Of a stretch of DNA of 64,000 nucleotides, positions 3,986-64,000 are shown one piece after another. Where the stretch lies: contig NIVC01000277.1 in NCBI GenBank assembly GCA_002269645.1, positions 1 through 64,000 on the forward strand, written 5' to 3'. Under the pieces are notes generated by a model that saw only the letters and a list, made by a program, of their open reading frames with translations, had not been told where the DNA came from and did no database searches. Position 1 is the first letter of the stretch. Each line of letters begins with the position of its first letter. The translations under genes were made by a program, and so were the position numbers. Source of the stretch: Macrostomum lignano. Lineage: Eukaryota.

Positions 3986-4665
3986 TCAGCCAGAAGGATT
4001 AATAATCTTGCAAACTGTGTCCACAACATCCTCAAGAGTAGTCTCTGGCAGCACTCGGATCTTGTGCACAGTTTTGAAAAGAGCAAACTGTGCATGCAGC
4101 TCCTCCCGTAGTTGTTCAAGATAACTCAGTGTAATGTGCTGCTCCCCACCTCGGTTTCGCTGTTGAATGCGCTCCAGTGCAAGCTCGGGTGTGATGTCCA
4201 GATAGATTAGTGTGGCATCAGATTGAAAGCAGTTGGTAAACATTTCATACAACCGAATCATCAGATTCAGTTCAAAGTTAGTCAACCGATCCTGTTTGTA
4301 CAACAGATTTGAAAAGGCAATTCCGGATCGTAGGTGTCGGTCCATCACTATCAGATCAATCGGCTGGCGGCCCTCCTTCACCTCGTTTGTCGCAAATTGA
4401 ACTGCGGCCATGTCGCGTCCCATCAGCTCTTGGTACACCAACGTTTGAAAAGCAAATGCTGACAGTTCACCAGAATAAAACTTCTCCAGGGCGCCGCAAA
4501 AAGGACCCTCGCTGCGGCAAAAATTTGCACCGGCAGAAAATGAGCACGCTTCCTCCAGTTGTCTAGTCTTGATCGTAGTGCCAAATTATGCAGTACGGTG
4601 GATTTGCCCGCTCCCAACAGTCCTTCAAGGATGAAGACGCTCGGTGCAAAAACGATATTTGCCAT
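3986..4665 (-). CDS. Deoxynucleoside (thymidine) kinase, dNK family; one frameshift near 4515
   Basis: P-loop ILEGLLGAGKST; LEKFYSGELSAFAFQTLVY after the frame change; MDRH (ERS-equivalent); IYLDITPELALERIQQRNRGGE lid motif; YLEQL. Confidence 0.9.
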
Positions 4666-4674
4666 TTCAGATTA

Positions 4675-5283
4675 CTAGTTGTTGGATATAGGATCGATTG
4701 ACTGCAAGATATTATGCGTTGAATTAGGAATCGAAAGCTTTAAGTATGTTTCAATACATGATAAAATAGAGGAGAGTTCTTGGGCATTTGCTGGGCCCAT
4801 TATGACCAGCTTTTTTGAACAAAACAAATTTGCAAACAAACGTTTATTCCAGCTGCAGCGCAATCGCACGGCTTGAGGAAAAGTTTCTGCATCGTAGCTC
4901 ACAGTGAAACCAATGAAACATCCAATTCTTAATTTTAGCATAAAAAATCTGTCTGTTGCGCTATAAAATTCATATTCACCAACATATGTTGAGGTTTGAA
5001 TACGTATTGAATTAAAATCCAGCTTAAAAACAGAATTGTGAATTGCCAGGAGTGTGGATATTAATTTGAGATTTGATGCACATCGAAAAATTGTAATTTT
5101 TCCACCAGGATAGATTTGCATAGTATAGCCAGCACTCGTAGCAACTCTCAGCATAGAGGGTCGTCCAAAATAGAGTTTGCAATTGAATCCGCTTTTTAGC
5201 AGTTTTAGCTGAAGCTGAAATAAATCTAGTCCATCGGAACCGCTCAAATCCAGTTGTGCGCTCCCGACACTCTGAACAATTCT
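4675..5283 (-). CDS. Divergent TATA-box-binding-protein (TBP)-fold protein, both saddle repeats; no in-frame ATG at the N-terminus
   Basis: Repeat 1: RIVQSVGSAQL..LDL...TMQIYPGGKITI, compared with TBP IQNIVGS..LDL..TALIFASGKMVV. Repeat 2: FNSIRIQT...VSYDAETFPQAVRL...LFANLFCSKKLVIMGPANAQELSSILSCIETYL, compared with TBP FTDFKIQN..SYEPELFPGLIYRM..VLLIFVSGKIVLTGAK.REEIYQAFEAIYPVL. Confidence 0.8.
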   Translation of the reverse strand, partial: RIVQSVGSAQLDLSGSDGLDLFQLQLKLLKSGFNCKLYFGRPSMLRVATSAGYTMQIYPGGKITIFRCASNLKLISTLLAIHNSVFKLDFNSIRIQTSTYVGEYEFYSATDRFFMLKLRIGCFIGFTVSYDAETFPQAVRLRCSWNKRLFANLFCSKKLVIMGPANAQELSSILSCIETYLKLSIPNSTHNILQSIDPISNN

Positions 5284-5397
5284 CTGAAAATTTCAAACCA
5301 GAAATAAGTCTGAATAAGTCGTGGTAAGACAAAGAACTTGGTCATCAGTTTATTATAATAATAATAAGTCGGGTAGTTAGCAAAAGCGCTATTGCAG

Positions 5398-5772: not shown

Positions 5773-6951
5773 TTAAGCGAACAGACTGCAATCCGAATCG
5801 GATGATCTGTTGCTCGAGGCTTCAGCTCCAGCTAGCTGCTTGGCGTACGAGAGATCCTTAGAGGCGACTCGCTTTCCCGGCTGAACCGTAGGCGAACTTA
5901 CGAGCTTCTTGACTGCCGGTACTTCAGCCCAGTCGGGATCGCTTGCTGGTCCACCTTTGCAAGCAGGCTGGTTCTTAGGAGCGCTCGCGGCAGGCCTTGG
6001 ACGTTTCGAATTCTTGCTTGGTGGCGGCGGTGGTGATGAGGTTCTCCTCTTCTTCTTCGGCGTGGTGCTGCTCTCACTTCGATTCTTGCCGGTGGCAGTG
6101 AGAAGACTTGGAGTAGGCAAACTTGAAATTTTCTCCTCGTTGCTATGTTCATGCACAATCCGATACTCGGACAGAGGTCCCTGCAGGTTCCCTATCAGGC
6201 CGGTAGTGTTTCCATCAGACAGCCACACCAGAGATCGGATGCAGGCGGCAAGTCGCCAGGCTGGCGCCCCCTTCGGAAGGTAGAGCGAAGTGATTTGCAC
6301 CGTGATCTGGTAGAGTCCGCTTCGCGCTGAAGTCTCGGGGCGAAACCTCTTGGATTGTGCGGCTGCCCTCGTTGGTGGAGAATGTTGTGCATGGATAGTT
6401 GGGCTTGATGCCGATCCAGGTAATTGGGTTGGCACCGCTCGCGTCAGGACTCTTAGTGAGTCTAATGAGCCCCATTCGGTCAGATTGCTGGTGAAGTGCC
6501 TTCTCGATCGACTTCTCGATCGCTCTGGAAAGAATATGACAGATAGCAACGTAAGAAAATTGCAGTAAACTTTAATTTCTAACCTGGGATGCGGTTCACA
6601 AACCAAAGAATAGGATTGTATTTACCTCAAAGTTGAAACCAGCTGAGGGCAAATGCCCTTGGCTTGAAAACCAAGTGCGATAGCTTCTCGTCCTTCGTTG
6701 ACCGAGTGTTCTGTGCCCGCACCGCTGTCTGTTCGGTGCAAACCGCGAAAGAGTAGAATCGGCTGTTGAGACTGCAGTAGAATCGGTAGTTTCTCGTGCT
6801 TGTCGCCCACCGGAGTCCAAGAGAGAGCGCGGAACTGACAGTTGTTGGCAAACTTGGGCGAAGAAGCTGGCTCGACATGGATTGTAGGCCGCGTCTCGGG
6901 TGAAACAAACTGCTGTGCGCTTAAGACTTCTTCTTTAGCGAAAAACGCCAT
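5773..6951 (-). CDS. Spliced gene; probable OB-fold single-stranded DNA-binding protein with a basic, NLS-bearing tail
   Basis: ORF 6622-6951 joins ORF 6215-6475 in frame across a GT-AG intron; one frameshift then leads into the 5773-6606 frame. Pattern ILLQSQQPILLFRG...IALGF...LRAIEKSI...GLYQITVQITSLYL...WRLAACIRSL resembles T7 gp2.5/large-DNA-virus SSBs. The tail contains PKKKRR. The product call is tentative. Confidence 0.5.
6525..6625 (-). other. 101-nt GT-AG spliceosomal intron
   Basis: Donor AG|GTAAAT at 6625, acceptor TTCTTTCCAG| at 6525. Removal gives the continuous frame STLR-AIEKSIEKALH. Confidence 0.7.
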
Positions 6952-7005: not shown

Positions 7006-7013
7006 CTTATATA
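7006..7013 (-). promoter_or_regulatory. TATA box (TATATAAG) about 55 nt upstream of the first gene of the Polinton-like train
   Basis: Reverse complement of cttatata; ATG at 6951. Confidence 0.6.
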
Positions 7014-7114
7014 CTGTTTTTTGAAAAGGTTTCCGGATAGTTCACCCAAATCGTCTGAATTCTTTACTTCTCCCGAAACGCTTTTAAGCCATATCAAGCT
7101 GTAAGTTCAAACAT

Positions 7115-7297
7115 CCTGACCTTTTGATTGAACATTGCGTTCTGGGGCTTGCTTTCCCTGACATTTCGATCTGGAGCGATTTGGGGCCAGCTGTTTCACT
7201 TAAAAGTTGTCAGTTTTATCTTCCTGACCTTTTGATTGGACATTGTGTTCTGTGGCATGCTTTACCTGGAATTTCGATTTGGAACGATTTGGAGGCA
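7115..7297. repeat. Imperfect direct duplication, about 75 bp, 108-bp period
   Basis: cctgaccttttgattg(a/g)acattg... at 7115 and 7223. Confidence 0.7.
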
Positions 7298-10200
7298 ATT
7301 TATCTTTACGAACAGTTGTTTTAGAAATTTAACAACTAGCGTCGGCGGCGAGGGAAAGAGAAACTGGAGGTCTGCGCTTTGTGGAAGAGAGGAAAATTGC
7401 GCCCCAGTTGCTATCGGGAGAGGGTTGAAAATTTGTCCGAAGTTTCGGCTATCTCCCATGTATATTGCCCATGTACCAACCATACATTTTTCGTATTTAA
7501 AAAAACCCTCCGTGTCCGATTTTTATCTACTACTGTTATACGCCAAGCATATTTTCAGGTCTACTATACGCCGGAATTTTCTGGTGTATATGTAAGATTC
7601 GGGAGTGGGGCATTATCCCAGTTAATATTGAAGCAGCGTGCGTACGCACCCCCCTCACCTTCGAAAAAGAAGACCCAACTCATTTCACCTAAGTATTTAC
7701 AACACGGAGGTCTTGCATTACGAAAGTAAGAGACCTTTATATTAAACTTATCTGCATAAGAAATTAAGAAATTATCTGCATAATTTCCAACATGGCCATG
7801 GCTGAAATGTGTTTGAACAAAACAGTTTAGAATGTTGTTTCTGTTGAATTTCTAGACCACAATAGATTGCTTTTCTTCCATATCCCCTACTTTCGTTTTG
7901 AAGCCCTTTAATGGATGCTTAACATTGTCGGTCTTTTAAAACGAAACTGTATATATCAGACATTCATAGAAAATGTACCCAAGGCAGGAAACAGGATGAA
8001 ACAGATGACAGGAAAACAAATCATCTAAACCCTACGTTTCTGCAGTTTTTGTTGCTGCCACCCCTACTACCTTCGTTTTGGAAGACCTTCAATGAAATAA
8101 TAGCTTGACGGTCTTCTAAAATGAAACTGTAAAATAAACTAATAAAGGACATACAAAGCCATTAAGAATAAACAAACAAAATAATAGACAACAATATGTG
8201 AGCAGCTTCCTATGTTTAAGGTGGGTCTTCTTTTTCAAAACCGCCAGCTTCCTATTTGATACATAGAGGGTCTTCTAAAATGAAAGAATGCCGCCAATAC
8301 AATCCCAGGATTTCAATTAGGCCTAGGCCTAAATCCCAGAATTAGAAGTGTCTGGGATTCAAAAATACTGGGATTGGCCATCAGGATCCTTGCCATAGAA
8401 AATTCTGTTGCACATAAAAGTATAATACAAGATAGGAATGTCAATTCCCTAAGGAAATTTCTTATTGGAGACCTTGGGGAATTCATTGTCATTCCCCAGG
8501 GACCCTAGGGACCCTTAGGAAAAGAAAAAAATAATCAAAAATAGTGGATAACTTAGATCTTAAGTGGCATTTTTTACTTTGATTTAAGCTTTGGACTATA
8601 TGTTTAAGGTGCAAAGGCAAAAAATTTCAACAATGTTCATTTAAAACTGTATTTGACAATGTAGTAAGGTGGGGGTGGAGAAAAGAATATTAGTGTGGTT
8701 GGGCAGTTTCTAGAACTTTGAATTCCTGCCTTTGTTATCTAGCACTTGTAAAGTGGAAAGTTTCACTGAATGGTTTAAAATGCTTTTCTCCTTTGATACT
8801 CTGGTTGCCAGGTCCTCATTTCCCGGGAGAGGGTAGTTGTAATTGCAGTCAAGTGGTCTTAAGCAGGCATGGTCATTTAGATAGTTGACACAGTAGTCTT
8901 GACACTATAAATTTCACTGTTTGCTGATTTGCTTAACTGATTACTAAAAGTAGTAGATAGTAGAGTGGCACTGCTACCACTGTAATTTTGTATTATAGAA
9001 CATTGAGATCTAAGAGCTCATTCAGAGTTGAGATTAATTCAGTTATTTTAGGCCCCATGGGCAAATAACTCAAGATAACCTATTAAGGGCTTCAATTAGT
9101 TAATGAAAATAATTAATGAGCAGGCATTTATTATTTGTTTATTAATTTATATTAATAACTTTATTTATAACAATTATTTAAACCAATAATTTATTAATTA
9201 TTGATTTTCGACCAACTAAAAGATTATTATTGCTAATGAGCAAGACTGCTGGCAGAGAAGGGGTGTTTAGTAAATATAGGAGCTAGTAACTTAACTATTA
9301 ACTTGCAAACAAGGAGCTTAGTAAAGAAATGTGCTAAATGAAATCAACAGTGTACACAAGGATTATTAGGAAAATGAAAGAAGAAAACAAATAGGGTTAA
9401 CAAAGTTAAGCATGAGATGCAGCCCAAGCTGGCCCTATAAATATTAAATGAAGCTACATTGCATTGAGTGGGGCAATGGATGGGGCAAGGGATAGGGCAA
9501 GGGTTGGAAAAGGATAAGGCAAGGGATAGGGCAGCGGACAGAGCTACCAGAAAACACAAAGAAAAAAAACAAAAGATTCTTACTCTAAATGATGGGGCAA
9601 GGGATGGGGCAGGGGATGGGGCAGCAGATGATGGGAAAGGGCCATCAGTGGGTCACATTAAATTGAGTCATTCGTCAAACAGTGGTAGTTTTGCCCTACT
9701 ACAATAGCATCACCAAATCTTGCACTTACCTTTGTCAAAAAGAGTAGACTGGAGACAGAAAATATATGCTCAGCAGCTACGCTTGTGACTTGTGAGAGGA
9801 TAATTAGTGAATGAGACTTTTTAAGTATTTTTATTATTGCAATTTTTTTCTTGCAGATAAATCACCATTTTGTCCTTGTTTAATAGGGAATATTTTGTTA
9901 TTGTATGAAACCCCCTATGTATCAGTGAATGATGCAGGATGCAGTGCTGCATCTGCATCAAATGATTCAAGCCATCAATGCAGACCAACACAGTAGTCAG
10001 TAAGGCTTCTTTTTCCTAACAGTTTTCTATATGCAATTTGCTTGATTGAAAGACTACTAGTGAAAAAACATTCAAATGTGTGTTGTGTTTGAAATAATAC
10101 ATTAAAATAAGCTGTTATGCAGTAAAAAGCATAGACAGAGTTTCAACCATGAACGGTGAATCATTTTCTTATTTAAATGGCAAAACCATTATTAGGCATA

Positions 10201-28799: not shown

Positions 28800-30547
28800 T
28801 CACGAGGATCATTAGCGTCGCCGCAGGAATCCGGAGACGCTTTTGCTTAAGATTTACGACTTCGTTGGGTAGCTGTGCAGCTTTTTTTCTGTGCCACAAG
28901 AGGCAGCACGAGCCCTGTTGCTGAACTTCTGCCGTATTGCCAATATTTTTTTGAAATTCGCTGCTTAAGACGAACGACTTTTCGTGCCGATTTTAAGCGT
29001 ACGTTGAATTCTTAACCGCCAAAAACTGGCCAAGTGGTATATCAAAGTCGACCAGATTTGGAAATTATCCGATGAAAGCAGAAAATAACTGCATTTCTGC
29101 GTTGGTCAAATGCGGTTTACTGCTGTTGACATATTTGGCCGTAATTTCAGCCATAGTAGGCCTTAAAATTGCATTAACAATGGATTGGTCCAACTTCAAG
29201 TCAGAGGCAGCCTCCTTTGCGTTGGCCAATTTAATCCTCGCACTGTAAGTGTAGATAGTTATCATTAAACCTCATCAACAGGTTGAGTGGCCTTGAAATC
29301 AGGTGGAGCTGGATGAAGAGGATCCTGCACTTGGTAGGGTGGTTGAGGTGGTTTGATATCTTCTGCAGATTATCCACTATCATTGCCTGATATTCTTGTT
29401 TTAATTTCATTCCGTTATCGATTTTCAGCAATATCGCGAACTGCACGAGGGTCGGCAAATGTTTATTCAGTTGACACAGAAGTTAACTTCCATACATGCA
29501 TGCACATTCAAATGGGCGTGGCTTAGAAGAATGAAACCCCTCCACTGGAATGATATATGCTGTAGAGATCGGATTATCTTTTGTGATTTATTGCGCAATC
29601 CCAAGCTCACACGCGGGGTCAGTAACCCCTGCAAATGCAGATCCCTTGCAAGAGATGATAATGATGAAAATAGCTTTGAATAAAGATAGGTTAACAGATG
29701 CCAGGTGCAAGGCTTCTTTGCACCAAGAAAGATAGCAAAAATTAAGAAGTTTTCTGGCTGAAAACGCAAAAACGGTGGAAGATTCAAAATTTGAGCTTGA
29801 ACAGGCCACAAAGAAGAGGGAGAATTAGAGTACAAGCTACAGCCATCAGTGGAGAGATGCAAAAAGATTGTAATAACTTGGGCGGTATCATAAATTATCG
29901 GACAATTTTTAAGTACGTCTGTCTTGATTGCTTGGCTTTGGCAAAAATCAACCATGTACTGAAATAGAGACTCGATGATAATTTGAAGCTGGAAGCCTAC
30001 ATCAGAGTGTGCAGTATAATTTAAAGGAGCAGCGCAACACCTTTGACTAGCATGAGAAGAACGACGCTGACATGTAGAAATGGAACATGTTTCAAGTAGG
30101 GAGAAATGGCTGCAAGCCATCACAAGACGATCCATGACTCTTTTCACCATTCTCATGGACAGCGAACAAGCAACAAAGTTGGAAGCGAAGAAAGATTTCA
30201 ATATTATGTCCATAGTAGCGAGAGGAATGTCCCTATTAACTATCAGGAACACGAAAAAACACGCACAAAAACTCTTTGCGTGCTAAGTCTTTCAAACAGT
30301 CGATAGAGAGAATAGCGTCGGACTCTAGGCTTCCCTCTTCACCATGAAAAAGCCCAGATTCATCTAGTTCATCGCATTGCGAGTCCAGAACTAGGACGCT
30401 CGGATCTGGCTGCTCATTGTGGCGAGCCTCTCCAGAGTTAGACGCCGTACTAGAGCAGGCGGCCTCAGCAGGTTCCTCATCAAAGTGCTCCAGCTCGAAA
30501 TCATCATAAAGGCACATGAATGCAACCGCTTCAAAGAACTCAGCCAT
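28800..30547 (-). mobile_element. EnSpm/CACTA (tnp2-type) transposase, degraded
   Basis: LHLSTDGCSLYSNSPSSLWPVQAQILNLPPFLRFQPENFLIFAIFLGAKKP; TDPA; acidic N-terminus; multiple frameshifts and an internal deletion. Confidence 0.85.
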
Positions 30548-34109: not shown

Positions 34110-34851
34110 AGTGCACCAACTTTACTGGCTCAGCTTTCAAGAAGTTCTGTAACCTGTTTGGCATCCGGCATACAACGACAACACCCTACAATCCGGCTTC
34201 TAACGGGCAAGTCGAGAACCTCAACAAGCGGTTAAAGAGTGTCCTCACCTGCCTCCTTGAGCGCAACCATAACGACTGGGACACCTTTCTCCCAGCCTGT
34301 CTGATGGCTCTCCGGTGACAGTTTTCACGCCTCACTACTTGGTGTTTGGTCTTGACTTCCGACTTCCAATCGACAACGCGATCAAGAAGCTGCCCGAGTA
34401 TCCCGATCTGCCGGAGTATGTCAATGACTTCCAGCGCTGTTTAGACGAAGCGACTGAGCTAGCCAAAGAACGCCTGCATCTGCATCTGCAGCTGCGCGAC
34501 GAGCACTATTCGAACCTGCCCGCCGCCAAGAAGCTCAAACCTGGTGACCTGGTTTTTCTCAACAACCCGGTGCTCGAACCGTACGAGGCGGCGAAGTTTC
34601 ATCGACCTCGCAAAGCGCTGTACGAGGTAGTCGAACCCAAGGGCGAGGTCGTCTACAAGATTCGCCGTAGATTGCTAAATCCGCGGGCCAGGCGCGACGA
34701 GCTAGTGGTCCATCGCCGGAATCTGCTGCTCGTACCTGATGCCGACTACCAGCTGACTTCAGACCCGGAGGTCGACAAGGCCAAGAAGCGCCGCAGGTCG
34801 ACTGAGGACCCGGATGGTGCAGAACCCGTGACCCTGACACCGAATTTCTGA
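34110..34851 (+). mobile_element. Gypsy integrase, C-terminal half
   Basis: TNFTGSAFKKFCNLFGIRHTTTTPYNPASNGQVENLNKRLK..WDTFLP..TPHYLVFG..KPGDLV..YKI..VVHRRNL. Confidence 0.9.
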
Positions 34852-39360: not shown

Positions 39361-42300
39361 CTGCGCACTGCCGCCTTGCTGTTGAGTTGGTGGCCGATGT
39401 TCACCGACGATAATCAATTCTTCTTCTCCCTCCTCGCTGGCAGCATCCAGATCAATATTACCATCAGAATCATTACTTTTTGGAGACTGCCTTTGCCGAC
39501 ATATGGAGAGACATATGGAGAATGTCTTTGCCTTTTTCTTCAATGCGACGTCGCTCACCAACTGGTTGCAGTGCAACAAAGTCGTTGTCGCTGTTTTGAC
39601 CTTCATTGATGCCCGCAATTACCTGGCTTAGCGACTCACGAGAAGCCTGTTCGTCGGCTGCCAGTTTCTGAGCCTTCTGCATCACCATTCGCCTCAGGTT
39701 GCGCATGCCATTATCGCCACTGGGCAGCTGTAGATGACCACAGTGGGTCCTGACTCCTTTTACCACATGGCCACATTCTTCTTGATCATCCCGCATTGAC
39801 AGCAGACCAGCCATGAGCTTCTTTCACTGCAGCTATCATGCCGGGCCGTTAGCTCACCCAAAACAACTTTGTTGCAGGTCAGACAAACGTTTAATTGAGC
39901 AGAGCTGCTGCTTTTTGTTTTGTTTTGTTTTGTTTTTGGAAAAAATTAAATGGGCCTTGAATACTCTTTGAGGCTTCGAAGACGCAGGGAGGGGTGGAGC
40001 CTTGCTATTTATGTTTTTTTAAAAGAATGAGATGGCGTCGATTGGGGAAGATATCTTTTTATAATATTTAATTGTATTTTTTAATAGTTTTATTAGTATA
40101 CATTGACAATATCCCCCATTGCGAACCCCACACACCCAAACCCAAACCATCATATGCCCGCCACCCCAGCTCAACCCCTCTTTACGATTGGCGATCTTAG
40201 TAATGCTCTTTGTAAAACATTGTGGTTGTAAACATGTTTGTGGGAACTAAAAACTGAATTCGGTGCTGCTACACCAAGTGTTCGCAGAACTTTATGGCTT
40301 GTTTTTGTTTTCGCCCTCCTGCAAGCTCCACCCATCCCGCACTAACGGGTTCTGTTATCTATACCCAACAAACCCCCCTAATATTTAAACACTCTCCTGG
40401 ACTCTAGGCTCCAAGAAATTAGACTTCGTTCTTCTTTTAAAGTTCATAGTTATTACTATTAAGCAAGAACTCTCATGGAATTATTTCTAGATAAATACGA
40501 GCGTAGATACAAACTATTAGTATAGTGCATTATTCAAAAGCGATTGCTCATACAGTCATGGCCACGGGAAAATTCCCACGGATCATTCCCGCAGGAAACA
40601 AATTTCTCCACCCACCCCCACCGAGACGCGACCCTCTGTTGTGTCACCCTATTACCTCTCATTATCGTCTCTACTGTGCTCAGATTTAAAACTTAAACGA
40701 GAAAGCACTACTGTAAGTAGTAACATAAAAATGCAAAAACTTGAAAGCTAGAAATTCCAAATCGTCAAACTATTTTTAAGACCACGAAAGCAACAAATGA
40801 TCATCTTTTGCAACATTCAAATTTAGAACTCTGAATATGGGATTCGATGCTCAAATTTATTGTATTCTATAAGGGTCAAATTTCAAAAACGCAAAACGTT
40901 CAAGTACTAAAAATAATCAGTTTTTCGCAAGATTTTCCTATAAATATAAGCCAAAATCCGAGCAAAAACTCTCAGACTCGGAGCAGCCTCTAAAGATCTT
41001 TGAGCTTGCTGGAACAGCTAAGCGAGGCTACATCTCTGAGGAAATAAATACCGTTCGGTTAGACTTTGTTCGAGCCTTTGTTATTGAATTCATTTTGAGA
41101 GCGATTTATTGCCGGCCGTTACTGTTCAGTTCATTTTACTGAGACTAATGAATTTGAGGCCTCCATTCCCGTATAACATTTAGACGTTACCCTAAGGTCC
41201 CAAATACGTCCCCAAATATCGTCTAATTAAAATGGCCTTTTTCACACACAATTGCCATCTATATTATGTAGGCAATAATAGAAAAGAATAAAAAGCAAGT
41301 AAGAAAATTTCCGTGCACCACAAAAACTCTTTTAAAAAATGCGTTATATTAGAACGTTACTGATACGCAATTTAAACGACACAATGATACGTAAAAATAA
41401 AAGTTTAATTTCTTTTTAAATCGAGTTTTTGTTGTTTTCAGAAATTCGATCCTGTACTACAAAAGAATTTACACATATGTCACTGTTGTATTTCGACACT
41501 ATTTTGTGTCTTTAAGCTTCAAATCGCGCGCCCAAAAGCAAATTACTCTTTGTTTAGTTGCTTGTTACGTGTTCCTCTTAGAAATTTGAATGAAGTGTTT
41601 CTAGCTGACGCAGACTCCATGTGTGAGAGCAAGATGTGCATTTTTCTGCTGGATAGTGAATTATTATCGTTTTTTACTTCTTAAGTAGCTTATATTGGTT
41701 GTGAAACTAAACTTTGTATCTGGTTTCGATGTAATTGTCGTGCATATATAACTCATAAATTGACTGTTAGCTAAGTTAGTTTTCCAATTTCGGAAGCTCA
41801 GTAGGGTAGGTAGGCCTTTATCTCTTATCTACGCTCTATATATATATTATTTTTTTGATCTAGCTATGCTTATTTTCTTATAATTGTATATTTCTAATCT
41901 CAATTAGGCTCTCGTATGTTATGCAGCAATGATCAATTATATTCATTCCCATTGGAACATTAAAAATTTACTATTATGATTCTTAAAAGTTGAGCCTAGC
42001 TATAAGTATAAGTTAATTCAACTCCTAATCAACAATTCAAAATTAAATGGCATCTAATAGACATAAAAAGGCTGCAAATCAGTTAATGCAATTAAGTGCA
42101 CACTTAGTTACATCTTCTAGTGAATCTGATTCTACTGACAGTATTAATAATGACAATTCAACTGCTAATGATTCTCAACTCCAAGACCAAAATATCATTT
42201 CAAAGTCTAGTAATTTCTCAGGTGTAATATCTGATTCTAATAATAGTTCTAGTGAAGATGCTTTGGAAGAAGTTGAAGTTGCTATTAGTAATAATGATGT

Positions 42301-44900
42301 TAGTAGCAGTGGTAGTGGTAATGAAAGTTTTGGTAGTTCTATAGACCAAGAGTCTAATAATGAAGATTTTAGTGAGAAATTTAACCAGGTCTGTATTGAT
42401 CATAATTTTTCACATGTGGCAATCAAAGATCTTCTTAAACTATTAAAGCCAAGCTATCCAGAGCTTCCAATTGATCCTCGTACATTTCTTAGGTCTTCGG
42501 GGACAATTGAGCTAATTGATGTTCCTCCTGGTAAATACTATCATTTTGGAATTGCTTCTGGCATCAAGTATATATTTGATTCTCTGAATGTAGTGCATCT
42601 ATTGCCACAATCAGGCAAAATCCATCTTAATGTTTGTATTGATAGGTTGCCCATTTTTAATAGCTCCGTGTCTGGTTTTTGGACCATTGTTGCATCTATC
42701 CAAGGCATTAAATCATCAGAATTTCTTGTTGGAATTTATTATGGGCCTTCAAAGCCATCAAGTTCTAACATTTTTTGGCTCCATTTATAGGTGAAATGCG
42801 CATATTACAAGATGGATTTTATGTATATGGAATTGAATATAAGATATATCTAAAGTATGTTTTTTGTGACACACCAGCACGGTATTTTATTAAGAATATC
42901 AAAAGTTATAATGGATACTATGGATGCGATCGTTGTCATCAGAAAGGAACAACAAACTATGAACAAACTCGCAACAAAGGCAGGACTGTTGTTTTTCTTG
43001 ATTTGAATGCTGAGCGTCGAACAGACAAATCATTTCGAGACCAGCTCCAACCAGCTCATCATCATGCCCACTCAGCTTTTGAAGATCTTCCTATTGATAT
43101 GATCTCTGGCTTCCCAGCTGACTCCATGCATTTGCTCTATAAAGGTATTGGGCTCATGGCCTTAAAGATACTCAAAGAAGGTAAACTGCCATTTCGCCTT
43201 TCTCAGTTGCTTCAAGGACAAGTTAATGCATACCTTATGCATGCAAGGAAGTATTTACCAACAGATTTTCTCGTAGGCCAGAACTGTTGCAGCATCTTTC
43301 TTTGTGGAAAGCAACAGTAGTACGTCTATTTTTCTTGTATTTAGCACCTTTTGTTCTCATTCCGCATGTTGGCAATGATGATTTTCTTAACTGGTTACTT
43401 TCATTTCATGTCATCATTAATTTGTTTAACTCTCCAAGTTTGAGCAATGAATATCTAGATTTTTTGCAGCAACTTTGTACTACATTTGTTACACAAACAA
43501 GAAATTTACTTGGAAGCCAGTTTGTTGTATACAATGTCCATTCTCTTTTGCACATCTTTGAGGACTTTCTTGCTCATAGAAATATTAATGAAGTGAGTTG
43601 CTTTCCATTTGAGAATTTTTTAAGATTTGTAAAGAGGCTTGTTCGTTCACCAACTATGCCTTTACAACAGGCTGTCAAAAGAGTAAAGGAAAACAATCAG
43701 TGCCTAGGGCAGTTTAATCCATGTGTTAGAGAGTCAGAAATCAAACTACACAAAGAGCACACAAGTAATATTCTACCACCTGGAGTGATTCCAATGAATG
43801 TTACACAGTATAAAATATTTAAACTGCCATCAACTCAAATTGTTACTAATGAGCGAGATGGATTCATTCTCTCTAACTCTGGAACCATCCTCCAAGTCAG
43901 AAACATTGTTCATGACAGCAAGGGTCATATTAGCTTTGTTGGCCAACAATTCATGCGTAAGGAACCCTTTCATAGCAGAATAATTCAATCAGATACCCAG
44001 TGGGGAATTTCAGTACGCCCAACCGTGCGCTGACGGCGGCGCCCCTTTTTGAGCGCCCGTGCGCCGACGCGTACGGTATAGGACTACGCCGCGCGGTTGC
44101 CCCGAACGGTGCGGGGCGCACGGTTGGATATATATCGAATATACCAGGGTACTACCTTTTAATAGTAGTATACTTAGCGCATGTAAGAAGAACTAGTTTA
44201 AATTTTTGCATTTGCAGGCATATTGTACGTACCGCTTATTGCACGAATTTCCCAAGGAATAACTATAAGAGTGTTTGCAATTACTTTAACTAATGAACTA
44301 CTCGTAGCGCTGACTTTCATTTTATTTGTGTATTTACAGAACAACTTATAAATGAGAAGAAAAACTTACACTAACGAAATTTTAAGAATACGTAAGATTT
44401 CTACATGTAAGCATATTTTTAAAAATTATACATGAACTTTAAAAATTGTAATAATGAAATAAAAGCAACATTAAATTTGATGTTAGCAACGGTATAGTGT
44501 CCGTAAAAAACTAAAAAGTACCAGGTAAGACGTATAACGGAATAAATAAGAATTAGAATAGAACAGACAAAAAATAATTTACGCAAAAGTAAGTTCATTT
44601 CAAGCATTATAGATATGGGAAACAAGCCTGTAAACTGTCTCCTACATTTATAAATTTATTCGACGAGTTGTGACGAGTGTAAGCTAGGATTTATACCCAT
44701 AAGGCTTGTTTCTTACCTCTCCTATGGTTTCTGCCCTTTCTGGCACCATCTCCCAAAAATTTCTGACCCCTCCAACAAAGCGTTAGCGCCTTCTGTGACA
44801 AAGTTTCTGAAGCCCTTTGAAAGTAACCCATTCTACTGTATCAGTGTTCAGCAGTCGCAACTGTCGATACTTATTGATTTACATGCAAAAAATCCAGTCA

Positions 44901-48183: not shown

Positions 48184-50376
48184 ATGAGAGTCTATAAGAC
48201 CAAGAATTCCCGACACAAGGCTGACAAGCATTTAAGAAAGTTATTCGATGGCGCACATAGCCGAAGTAGCTTACTATCATGTTCTAATGCCACTACCACT
48301 TCAGCAAGTTCATCAATCTGCATCACACAAGAAGATTCTTTACCGACTGTTCCAGCGGCAAGAGCTGCCGAAAAAGTTGCTTTATCTGAAGATTCTTTTT
48401 CAAACAGTAAGTCGCTTATCTCAAGTTTAGAAACGCGCTCAATAAGCTATATAGCTTCTTACATGATTTTATCCTCTACTCTGCCACAATGTGTTACTCT
48501 CACTTAAGGTTAATGCTATTATTGATATTTCATTTCCTGGCAGGTGGACTTTCTGATGACGTCGAAATACTTGGGGATCTTGAGTCCCTTTGTAGTGAGT
48601 CCAGTGATGAAGCTGAGGAAGACGATAATTCGAGGGATGCTTGCGTAGAGACGGACGATCGCCCACTGGAAGTGCAATTGGAAGACGTATTCGTTTCATT
48701 GCGGACCGTGCACGGGGTTTCTCGAAGAGCGGTTGAATTTTTGATTGGAGAATTGCACCGACTAGGATTGCCTGTGCCTAGGTCGGCCAGCCGCATTGAA
48801 ACCATCATTAAATCGACGGAACCCCCACTAAGCTGCTGTCAATGGGTGCAGGGAAGTTTCGCTACGTGTCAATTCTGAACAATCTGCAGGAACTGCATAA
48901 AAAAGATTTGCTGAAGCTGAAGCCTGAAAGTATTGGACTTGAAGGAGACAGTAGAGTTTACAATCTCATTGGCGTCGTAAATTGCGATGGTCTTCCGCTC
49001 TACAACTCTAGCTCCTTCGGAATGTGGCCAATTCTCATGATGATTCCACAGGCTTTTCCCAAACCTTTTCCGGTGGCGATTTGGTTGGTGAAGGCAAACC
49101 TCCTCTGGAGGATTTCCTGGAAGAATTCTGTATCGAAGTGAAACAGTTTCTTTCCGGGCCCATCGAAATTGCAAACGCAGTCAGTGTAACGCTTTCCGAG
49201 CTACTTTTTGTTTGTGACACCCCAGCGCGATCATTTTTAATGCGGACATTAGGACACACTTCTTACCACGGTTGCACTTACTGCAGAGCGACGGGTCCGC
49301 GCGTGGACAATAGGGTGACCTACTCAACTACAATAGGGGAGAAGAGGTGCGGAGAAATGTACCGGGCGAAGCAAGAGAGCTGTATGGATTACGAACGAAC
49401 ACACAAGGTGTCACCCCTTCTATATCTACCTCGCGTGGACTTCGTTACGTCGTTCCCTATTGACTATCAGCACGCTGTCTGTCTCGGGGTAGTCCGGAAG
49501 CTGATGCACTTTTATTTTCCGGTTTCTGCACGGCACCGACTCAACCATCCTCAGAGACAGCTTTCTGACTGGATTGCTGAAATTTCCTGCTGGACACCTT
49601 CAAATTTCCAGAGGAGACCTCGGCGAATCGACAAAAACCTGAGCCATTTTAAGGCTACTGAATTCAGACAGTTCGTGCTGTATATCGGACCCATCCTGTT
49701 CAGAAAGTATTTACCTACTAAGCTGTACAAACACTTTCTGCTGCTGCACTTTGCTATCTACACCTACTCGACGACCAAACTTTCTCATCGATGGAAGCAT
49801 GCTCAGAGCTGCATCGAGGTTTTTGTTCAGCAGTTGGCCGTGTATTTTGGCCAGAAGTCAGTATCATTCAACGTGCACGCCCTACTGCACATGTATGACT
49901 TTGTCAAGCATCTGGGTAGCCTGAACAGCTTCTCAACATTTCCATTTGAGAATTACCTCGGCATTGTAAAGCGTAAAGTGAGAGTGACTCGCTATGTCGC
50001 TTCTCACGCCGTCAAGCAGGTTCTACAGGTGCGGCACGTTCAGATGATGCGAGGACCAGCAATTATTTCTCCGTCGCTAAAATTTTCCACTACGAGAGGC
50101 GACAACTGCTGCATTCTGGGACGATCTTGCATGATGATCGAAGCAACATCCGACAATGGCACTGTGACGGGAAAGATACTACGCCCAGTTGAAGAATTGT
50201 ACTCATATCCATACAGTTCTTTAAAATTGGAGATCGGAGTGTACCGCCTAACCTCAGAAGTAATTTCTGGCAAGCCGGAAAGGAAGTGCTGGTGCATTCC
50301 GAAGCAGCCGAACGCTGAAGGCACCTGCGAGTTATTCTATGTCGTACCACTGACGGGCGAGGACAACAGTAATTAA
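48184..50376 (+). CDS. EnSpm/CACTA transposase of the inner element, about 3 frameshifts, catalytic motifs retained
   Basis: NCDGLPLYNSS..MWPI, VCDTPAR, GHTSYHGCTYC, IDYQHAVCLGVVRK, FKATEFRQFVLY, FNVHALLH, FPFENYLG. Confidence 0.92.
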
Positions 50377-62092: not shown

Positions 62093-62149
62093 CACCTTGC
62101 AGAAATAATAAGAATGAGACTAAGAACTATTGAAAAGAATCCGGGACCG
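62093..62149 (+). other. 2A-like ribosome-skipping motif (LRTIEKNPG/P)
   Basis: IEKNPGP at 62129-62149, upstream of the APE domain; D of the D(V/I)ExNPGP consensus is replaced by T. Confidence 0.65.
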
Positions 62150-63572
62150 AGAGCACAGGAAGCACCTAAAAAACAAACAAAAACGAATAAAAACGAGCGC
62201 AAACCAAAAAAAGACAAGTGAATGGAAGAAGAGGAGAAATGAAAGACGGAAAGAAAGAAGGACAAGAAGGAAGCAAAACGAGAAGAACCGCAGACAGAAG
62301 AGACTGAAAGAGGAGACTCGAATCACAACATGGAACGTGCAGAGAGCTAACATCCTGGACAGACGCTTCGGAGAAATAACGAAGAAAATAATGACAGAGA
62401 ACTGGCAAATCACTCTAATCTCAGAACTCAGAGCACCAGACGATGGAATAAGAAGCTACCACCAAAAAGGAAAGAATGTCCACCTGATTTACAGCAGGAA
62501 AGCGGGAATTGTACTCAATGATGAATGGTACACCATCTGGAGAGACAGCGGAGCAAAGGTAACGAGGTGCGAGAGAGCGGTTATGCTTGAAATCTACGAG
62601 TTATCAATCATCAGCATCTATAGTCCGGTCAGGGGCAGTCAACAATACGAAACAGAGCTGGCTGCACTCCGACATGAGATAGAACGGTACATCCATGCGG
62701 ATAAGACACCAAGACCACTGATTATAGGAGGAGATTTCAATGCTCAGATTGGCAAAAACTCGGAAAGACCAACACCAAACAGAGGGAAATTTGGCTTGGA
62801 GACAACAAATAAGCAGGGAGAAGACCTAGTGAACTGGTTGACATCCAACGACCTCGCATGGGTAAACTCGTTCTACCACCAAAAACGACGAGGGACATGG
62901 CAGAACCCAAGTAACAGAAGATGGTACGAAATTGATGGATTCGCGACAAGAGCAGAGGACCGTAATAAAATCATAAAATCAATTAAAAATCACAACGGCT
63001 GTGCACTGTCCGACCACATCCCAAAGACATTAATAATCAGGAGCGTTGCCGACACAGGAAAAAGACCGAACGCAAAAAGACTGTACAGGAGAAGTAATCA
63101 AGGCATCAACTGGAAGAAGCTCTATGATGAAGAGAACGCAACGAAATTCAAAAAAGAGTTGGAAAGAAGAATGCAAACGTGGAAGGAGAACAAGGAGGAA
63201 AGAGAACAACCACCATGGACAGAAGTGCAAAGAATAATCGTGGAGAGTGCAAAGTCGATTTGCGGACCAGCGAACCGACAAACAAATCCGTGGATGTCAT
63301 CCCACGAAAACGACCTAAAGAGGTTGCACGAAGAATTGGCTGTAAGACTCCAACAGAGGAACAGGGCCAGGGAAACCCACGGCCCGAGAAGCGAGCAGAC
63401 GAAGAGAGCAGAAGAGGCGCTGAGAAAAACACGAAAAACCCAAAAAAACACGGTGCGTGAATGGGAAGAACAGTGGTGGGATCAACTGGCCGACGAATGT
63501 AGAAACGCAGCAGACAAAGGACAAATAGCGGTGGTATACGACAAACTCCGACTCCTAGACAAAAGAGGCACG

Positions 63573-64000
63573 CCCGCTGGAAAATGGTGCCTCAGCGCAA
63601 GCGTGATTTTGGCGTTTTTTAAGCAGAGAAGGCGAGTTTTGGGTGTGCAGAGCGTGCTTTGGGCTGGCTGAGTGTCAGTTAGGCGTAAAATTGGGGTGGT
63701 TGGTGGGGGGAGAGAAAAACGCCAAACCCGCTTAACCAGCTAATAAACGCCTGGGCAACTTAGGCAGCTAATTTTACGCGCAACCAGCTGGAAAGACGCC
63801 TAGGCAGCTAAGTTTACGGCCATGTAGGAAAGTACGCTTGGGCCGCCGAAATTACGCTCTGCCCGCCCAAATGACGCTTTGGCTGCTCTGACAGCCAATT
63901 TTACGCTCAACCTACTGAAGTGACGCTTAGACAGCTAAGCTTACGCCCAACCAGTTGGAATGACGCCTAGCCAGCTAAGTTTACGCCAACGGGATCATGC
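63573..64000. mobile_element. Terminus and subterminal repeats of another probable EnSpm/CACTA element
   Basis: Begins CCCGCTGG where RTE homology stops; repeated gacgcctag.cagctaagtttacg units; TACGCCCAACC is shared with 44014. Confidence 0.55.

Follow-up and report, generated by a model that had tools for sequence, protein, structure and literature searches.

A TBP-like exon in Maverick elements of Macrostomum lignano as a candidate selector of late promoters

Closest to the system reported here is the vTBP of beta- and gamma-herpesviruses (ORF24 in KSHV), a viral TBP-fold domain within a larger protein that brings host Pol II to variant TATA boxes on late genes (PMC12529657). ORF24 keeps the four Phe and both Asn residues of TBP, reads TATT and acts in a six-protein complex; Table 1 of that paper lists polar residues (Ser, Asn, Asn and Ser) at positions L114, V122, V161 and L205, and one of its section titles calls the ORF24 model incompatible with TFIIB. 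The TBP-like proteins of NCLDV, which also turned up as BFVD matches, are divergent viral TBPs that have lost the regulatory patch of the N-lobe. The NCLDV mostly have their own TFIIB and polymerase, and the TFIIB-contact residues have diverged, as the consulted sections of PMC7221094 describe. In yeast, the changes of TBPm3 (I194F, V203T, L205V) lie on the same face as those described below and shift the box that is read, relaxing position 2 through repeat 2 (PMC1636458). Finally, a TBP-like gene has been annotated in at least one element of the same class (Mavericks, Polintons and adintoviruses), a MELD virus; the consulted text of that report gives no residues, promoter motif, splicing or function for it (PMC8502044). 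Mavericks/Polintons have no RNA polymerase, and the question that we address is how their early and late expression is ordered.

Our window, a stretch of 64,000 nucleotides of the M. lignano genome, holds the left arm of a Maverick/Polinton (7534 to 1, minus strand), and the contig stops within its polymerase gene (Table 1). The element shows the TIRs starting with AGT and the 6-bp target duplication of this class, together with its pPolB, rve integrase and A32-like ATPase: the polymerase matches PF03175 at E 2.5e-25, while rve (E 2.5e-4) and Pox_A32 (E 3.4e-3) were found in a near-identical copy, both below their cut-offs. At the far end of other copies, the DNA search gave an inverted match of ~190 bp to the left TIR. 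All five copies compared are 99.3–99.8% identical over 2.5–2.9 kb, and the near-identical copies have four distinct left and five distinct right flanks. Because these copies differ in their flanks and four left/right flank pairs agree by 6-bp duplications, we conclude that the subfamily of the window element was mobile recently. One copy on C4619 (loci L098 and L100) has left and right flanks with different 6-bp duplications, each matching other contigs, which suggests that the assembly mixed near-identical copies there.

Table 1. Features of the element in the window (positions of the whole stretch; a dot marks features given without a strand).
Feature	Position	Strand	Evidence
TBP-like exon, 202 codons, two TBP repeats, without own start codon	4675..5283	-	family profile, model, residue alignment
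Pyrimidine tract and phase-0 acceptor TTTCAG before the TBP-like exon	5284..5310	-	13/20 loci, one pattern; also sixth subfamily
Exon 2 of gene X: folded part, basic linker, acidic tail; one frame break here	5773..6524	-	
Phase-0 donor GTAAGT at L/VS in the tail of gene X	5896..5901	-	GT(A/G)AG in 12/12 copies; also sixth subfamily
GT-AG intron of gene X, 101 nt	6525..6625	-	joint in contigs of 2/4 runs
Exon 1 of gene X (putative ssDNA-binding protein)	6626..6951	-	ORF; conserved in 7 aligned copies
Canonical TATA box TATATAAG of the leading promoter (putatively early)	7006..7013	-	
Two 94-nt direct repeats, 82% alike, between TIR and promoter; no assigned role	7096..7297	.	
Left TIR of the Maverick	7344..7534	-	starts AGTAGTAG at 7534; copy boundary by DNA search
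6-bp target-site duplication	7535..7540	.	same hexamer beside right ends on two other contigs
Deoxynucleoside kinase gene, one frame break here	3986..4665	-	PF01712 E 9.4e-16
DNA polymerase of family B, protein-primed, with endonuclease VII domain; frame broken several times; extends past contig end	1..3750	-	PF03175, PF02945

The window gives the gene order gene X, TBP-like frame, deoxynucleoside kinase and pPolB. Other copies continue with dUTPase, a phospholipase-like gene, ATPase, a putative minor capsid gene, a protein-X-like core gene, integrase, a putative major capsid gene and a putative protease gene. For the capsid and protease labels we rely on motifs and gene order and take them as assumptions; a Pfam search of the major capsid, minor capsid and cysteine protease frames gave no match for any of the three. 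An unbroken polymerase frame is present in other copies and contigs from sequencing runs deviate from the window by small indels near several frame breaks, so that some of these breaks are probably assembly errors. One subfamily with more than 20 near-identical copies (loci L007–L020 and L109–L110) has lost most of the polymerase gene and kept X, the TBP exon and the late module; it is probably non-autonomous and mobilised in trans. In another copy (L025:7730–8518, L024) the X gene is rearranged and duplicated, with RING-like genes nearby.

The initial annotation had proposed a TBP-fold protein with altered DNA-contacting residues. Taken alone, the window protein matches neither Pfam nor the PDB. 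The two tandem TBP repeats are established by its family: PF00352 is matched by 14 of 16 aligned members (the window protein is not among the 14), and the family profile finds 35 PDB sequences, all TBP chains or TBP fusions, with a best E of 7.8e-10 and most matches spanning both repeats. In the Atlas, 30/30 matches are PF00352 clusters (score 0.95). AlphaFold2, run with 16 sequences, returned the TBP strand/helix pattern twice (pLDDT 79, pTM 0.60). Foldseek of this model puts TBPs on top (E 1.4e-7), and the top 38 entries in VIA are TBP with Z 9.4–11.6 over about 167 residues, at an rmsd of 7.4–8.9 Å. Superposed on TBP, the model gives TM 0.36–0.41 and an rmsd of 7.4–9.7 Å with its two halves not placed as a saddle, which is likely due to the shallow alignment.

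Searching the genome with the TBP-like family gave 73 matches (79 candidates scored), which form at least six subfamilies that are about 35% alike. Between two subfamilies dN/dS is about 0.17 (dN 0.22, dS 1.33), the synonymous sites of other pairs being near saturation; this ratio indicates that the domain is under purifying selection. Outside the M. lignano genome we found only four related proteins (P0001–P0004), and the viral and metagenome contigs searched held no TBP-like locus. A further candidate, P0005, was set aside, since the match covers 41 residues within a 2373-aa repeat protein. In one subfamily (L048:940–2319 and L049:872–2251, minus strand) the TBP-like frame continues in frame into the deoxynucleoside kinase (460 codons). 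A longer TBP-kinase fusion is possible there; the kinase retains its own ATG.

Residues were compared over eight rows of family A, the Maverick family of the window, and the yeast numbers were checked for part of the positions in Table 1 of PMC12529657. In repeat 2, F190, P191, F207, R196, K211 and G216 are kept in 8/8 rows, as in cellular TBP/TRF2 (PF00352), and position 209 is S or T. The proposal that both intercalating Phe of this repeat are retained thus holds (F190=F135 and F207=F154, yeast=window). For the positions beyond those checked the yeast numbers are presumptive. The acidic TFIIB stirrup of the C-lobe is kept in sequence, with E188 (window E133) in 8/8 rows and D or N at 186 (window D131), the positions E186/E188 being those with which TBP binds TFIIB (PMC7221094). 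K120 is present in 7/8 rows.

Unlike cellular TBP, the element protein is changed at F99, N69, N159, T124 and T215, and the canonical set of four aromatics, the Asn pair N69/N159 and the Thr pair T124/T215 is not found. No row has an aromatic counterpart of F99, so three of the four intercalating aromatics remain. Tyr stands at F116 (window Y58), and T124 is Phe or Tyr. Since the repeat-1 loop is about three residues shorter, the residue replacing F99 depends on the alignment. Of the reading that RFA had become RPS and IFA had become IYP, the Tyr and the missing aromatic stand, and RPS is only one of several registers. The two conserved Asn had been read correctly as Gln and Thr (N69=Q4 and N159=T97); across the rows N69 is Gln, Leu or unaligned and N159 is Thr or Ser. 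The Thr pair is F66 and M162 in the window protein. Four aliphatic base contacts have become polar in 8/8 rows (L114Q, V122T, V161T, L205N), which are the same four positions that are polar in ORF24, and L205 is also one of the residues altered in TBPm3. By eye, the host K/R cluster of helix 2, the basic N-lobe patch for TFIIA, Mot1, TAF1 and Brf1, is absent from the window helix. The TFIIB contacts set the element protein apart from its NCLDV counterparts: E188 is invariant, and a TFIIB family search of the genome returned 15 matches at 7 contigs with no high-copy set that would point to an element gene. In a host TRF2-like protein (L066:736–1926, minus strand), three of the four intercalating Phe are absent (Tyr, Arg, His, Phe) and a long basic/acidic tail is present.

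The canonical TATA box of the leading promoter lies 62 nt upstream of the first ATG of the element. By itself TATATAAG is within chance for 64 kb (4 found, 1.78 expected, 4 reached in 13/100 shuffles). A TATA box of this type precedes the leading gene in all six subfamilies viewed, five with a perfect TATAWAWR and one with a mismatch at position 8, and the canonical leading promoter of the initial annotation is thereby confirmed. A different box marks the other half of the element. Among strand-biased 7-mers counted de novo, TATAAGC came out on top (28 versus 0), and TATAAG(C/T) occurs 35 times in sense and 4 times in antisense in 76.6 kb from five subfamilies, with 6.6 expected. All 35 sites lie downstream of the polymerase gene: 0 fall into 35.4 kb of early and 35 into 41.3 kb of late module, at similar A+T. 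The binomial p of 4e-10 for this split is overstated because the sites are homologous across subfamilies; with four of them also belonging to a single tandem duplication, the number of independent sites is closer to 7 positions in each of 5 lineages. Most sites (26/35) fall outside any ATG-started frame of at least 100 codons, 21/35 have an ATG-started frame at most 140 nt away, mostly at 43–54 nt, and one lies 124–165 nt above the putative major capsid gene in 5/5 subfamilies.

The differences between TATAAG(C/T) and TATAWAWR fall on positions 6 and 7, within the 3′ half. This half is contacted by the N-proximal repeat of TBP, and the selections with wild-type TBP reported in the consulted part of the same study contain no G at the positions after TATAA (PMC1636458). 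The lobe that faces the deviant half of the box is repeat 1, which is remodelled more than repeat 2, whereas TBPm3 relaxes position 2 via repeat 2. Beyond this lobe assignment, we treat the base-by-base contacts between TBP and DNA as general background.

Two other Maverick families of the same genome, B and C, were recovered by a TBP family search (330 candidates, 150 scored, 20 loci fetched from these). Their TBP genes start with their own ATG. In family B, N69, V71 and L114 are kept and it is repeat 2 that is altered, at P191, R196 and K211; the top 7-mer is TTAAGAA (15 versus 0), no family-A box occurs in 16.4 kb, and the family box (C/T)TTAAGAA differs in its 5′ half. Families A and B fit a lobe-by-lobe match of TBP changes to box changes, across two or three lineages only. 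The TAAG core is common to all three families, and the family-B TBP gene itself stands behind a family-B box. For family C, no clear motif emerged de novo from 5.3 kb. All three Maverick families met in the M. lignano genome have a TBP gene, and five further element loci, four of family C and one of family B, gave no TBP-less Maverick as a control. In families B (well over 100 matches) and C (loci L075–L094 and L115–L124) the TBP variants follow an exonuclease-like gene, and the boxes seen there read (C/T)TTAAGAA or TATAAGAA. Instead of X, family B has a PC4/p15-family gene close to the beginning of the cluster (L075:8758–9489, minus strand; PF02229 E 4.7e-7), the PC4/p15 fold being that of a ssDNA-binding coactivator.

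We put the probability at roughly 60% that the element-encoded TBP variant selects the late promoters of the Maverick and brings host TFIIB and Pol II to them, as judged from sequence. Host TBP would start transcription at the canonical TATA box by the left TIR. The leading transcript would yield protein X and, via an alternative donor, the TBP domain as its last exon, as the conserved splice sites suggest. The TBP domain would then bind TATAAG(C/T)A in the minor groove, with its C-terminal repeat reading TATA and its remodelled N-terminal repeat tolerating or reading G-C at positions 6–7, so that it would prefer TATAAGCA over TATAAAAG. The kept acidic stirrup would recruit host TFIIB and Pol II, and the dUTPase, packaging, integrase and capsid genes would be switched on. 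Observed in support of this scheme are the TBP ancestry, the selection, the residue pattern, the motif with its distribution and the conservation of the splice sites. The element TBP most likely works like the herpesvirus vTBP, by analogy, outside that system: no herpesvirus-type partner genes were recognised among the element frames, the box is TATAAG(C/T) and not TATT, and in contrast to ORF24, whose model conflicts with TFIIB, the element protein keeps the stirrup.

Several observations speak against this selection of late promoters. Because all families share the TAAG core, host factors or a different protein of the element could recognise the boxes. Nor is TATAAG closed to host TBP, since TBP has been crystallised on the single G(-26) and C(-25) variants, as the titles of PDB entries 1qn5 and 1qn3 state. 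A family-B TBP gene behind its own family box does not fit a clean early-to-late order. The AlphaFold2 model is not saddle-shaped and the alignment of the repeat-1 loop is uncertain, and the change of T124 to F/Y with the loss of both Asn could abolish DNA binding. The same features, the lost intercalating Phe, the lost Asn pair and the bulky residue at T124, next to a kept TFIIB stirrup, would suit a TFIIB sink, that is, a decoy or repressor that binds TFIIB or sits on TATA boxes without activating and so damps host or early transcription. We consider this improbable. The phosphate contacts R196, S/T209 and K211 (8/8 rows each) and K120 are kept, and the newly polar positions do not vary, which would be expected if this surface still reads DNA. 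The basic patch of the N-lobe, to which regulators bind, has been lost, and a decoy leaves the confinement of family-specific boxes to the late module unexplained. The initial annotation had offered a non-canonical promoter or a decoy as alternatives; TATAAG(C/T), found only in the late/structural module and deviating in the half that faces the N-repeat, favours the former, and the decoy is the weaker part.

It is just as doubtful that host TBP/TRF2 or a different element protein recognises the late boxes while the TBP-like domain works off-promoter, for example at the termini in protein-primed replication. The coding sequence of the domain sits in the replication module between X, kinase and polymerase, its predicted fusion partner is a putative ssDNA-binding domain, and the common TAAG core would agree with this reading. 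Against it, two families in one nucleus pair different boxes with different TBP variants (albeit in two or three lineages), and the Glu that binds TFIIB does not vary. That the gene is a host TRF/TLF paralogue or a captured pseudogene in decay, to which the broken copies and the missing Pfam match of the single sequence could point, is extremely improbable and already largely refuted. Host TBP and TRF2 are separate loci, and the window protein is about 20% identical to host TBP. In a tree of 17 rows, drawn without outside TRF and viral rows, family A stands alone on one side of a 100/100 branch with host TBP, TRF2 and families B/C on the other. The placement with host TRF/TLF in host synteny that had been named as a refutation of the initial annotation thus did not appear; the gene lies inside a TIR-bounded element with its 73 genome matches, and the purifying selection argues against decay.

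How the TBP-like exon is expressed may depend on gene X. The UniRef models of relatives of X splice at the site equivalent to its 101-nt intron; the closest are labelled Macrostomum lignano, and one is 100% identical to a genome copy. Atlas matches of gene X are NCLDV clusters (0.90–0.94), some with DUF2738/DUF5871 on 10–29% of members, which we treat as a lead only; DUF2738 itself is found on 10–15% of members in such clusters and is, we presume, an SSB. Profile searches of gene X against Pfam, PHROGs and the PDB were all blank. The DUF2738 profile matched nothing anywhere, its controls being likewise blank, and the exon 2 model has a pLDDT of 41, at which a fold search is meaningless. Judged by its Atlas neighbours and acidic tail, the product may bind ssDNA.

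In the TBP-like frame the first ATG is codon 44. Initiation at the internal Met44 was dismissed as the principal route: the 43 residues upstream of it are conserved, and one subfamily has a stop codon directly before these residues. In that subfamily the acceptor TAG is the in-frame stop, so that the conserved residues can be reached only by splicing. In the acceptor test the 7 of 20 loci without a match are partial, broken or of this TAG-acceptor subfamily. An in-frame ATG stands 10 codons upstream of the acceptor in 2/12 copies; a third copy of the same subfamily lacks it. As both donor and acceptor are in phase 0, splicing would yield X, the basic linker and the TBP domain in about 520 residues. 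The spliced X-TBP fusion, alone or alongside a leader route, is the form that we would favour on the splice sites, with some reservation.

The other route, distinctly less probable in our view, is that trans-splicing adds an AUG-ended spliced leader of the host at the phase-0 acceptor, so that the TBP variant is made on its own, without X. The M. lignano leader ends in ATG and is joined at acceptors of the form (T/C)TNCAG, and trans-splicing predominates where there is no donor upstream in cis (PMC8629364). The 3′ 18 nt of the leader occur 71 times in the genome (control 0), and the TBP acceptor stands in phase 0 directly at strand 1. One UniRef gene model (P0010) joins the L/VS donor to an acceptor before the kinase instead, so this donor may serve another exon. 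Against the leader route stands the donor itself. The LVS tripeptide is conserved in the disordered tail of X, 259–618 nt above the TBP acceptor, and the donor is retained in 6/6 subfamilies, while V-S pairs elsewhere in the element are encoded by GT(A/G)AG in 25/100 cases (about 2e-4 for six independent lineages). In addition, the acceptor of one subfamily is TAG and not CAG, and the 3 of 71 leader matches viewed have no GT after them and hence are not the leader genes themselves.

Against the fusion, the contigs of four runs, at a depth near 10, gave no junction between the donor and the TBP exon, and those of two runs cross the interval unspliced; the runs were only guessed to be RNA, and contigs drop rare forms. 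A longer fused X-TBP form was absent from the protein collection, also without a length limit, which is weak evidence, and none of the five UniRef models of X has a TBP domain. AATAAA at 5354–5349 (minus strand), between the X stop and the TBP acceptor, could terminate a short X transcript and so compete with the alternative splice. For the polymerase, a start at an in-frame acceptor was not upheld; an ATG precedes the zinc finger in 2/4 copies.

A bolder version, which we put forward tentatively and think rather unlikely, joins these parts: a ssDNA-binding domain spliced to an altered-specificity TBP would nucleate late transcription only on replicating, strand-displaced genomes, each co-resident family with its private pair (TATAAGCA versus CTTAAGAA) in one nucleus. 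This would give a mid-size DNA virus a late switch of a single protein, coupled to replication. In the openly accessible literature consulted on Polinton TBPs, late-promoter motifs and Macrostomum Mavericks, we found no such motif or fusion. TBP in Polinton-class elements is already in print; new against that literature are the family-specific boxes matched to lobe-specific TBP changes and the proposed splice-fusion design. The answer offered to the question of early and late order specifies one protein, one 8-bp box and, lobe by lobe, which residues should read which bases; another family of the nucleus serves as specificity control, and the host appears to be a laboratory flatworm amenable to RNAi. 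If late-promoter selection by the TBP variant is correct, it would add a third independent case in which a TBP mimic serves late genes, here with polar substitutions at the herpesvirus positions, and a natural source of orthogonal TBP-promoter pairs.

Leader-headed sequences without a following GT (L136–L138) are probably retrocopies of trans-spliced mRNAs, and other leader matches recur on several contigs at a spacing of about 11 kb. The remainder of the window holds pieces of other mobile elements. A decayed CACTA/EnSpm-like transposase piece lies at 29467–30282 (minus strand, weak match to PF02992), and we take 42047–44033 and 49012–50376 (both plus strand) to be further such pieces by their motif. 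A LTR-type integrase tail is found at 34273–34848 (plus strand; PF22938, weak), and a LINE-type endonuclease frame with PF14529 at 62124–63671 (plus strand).
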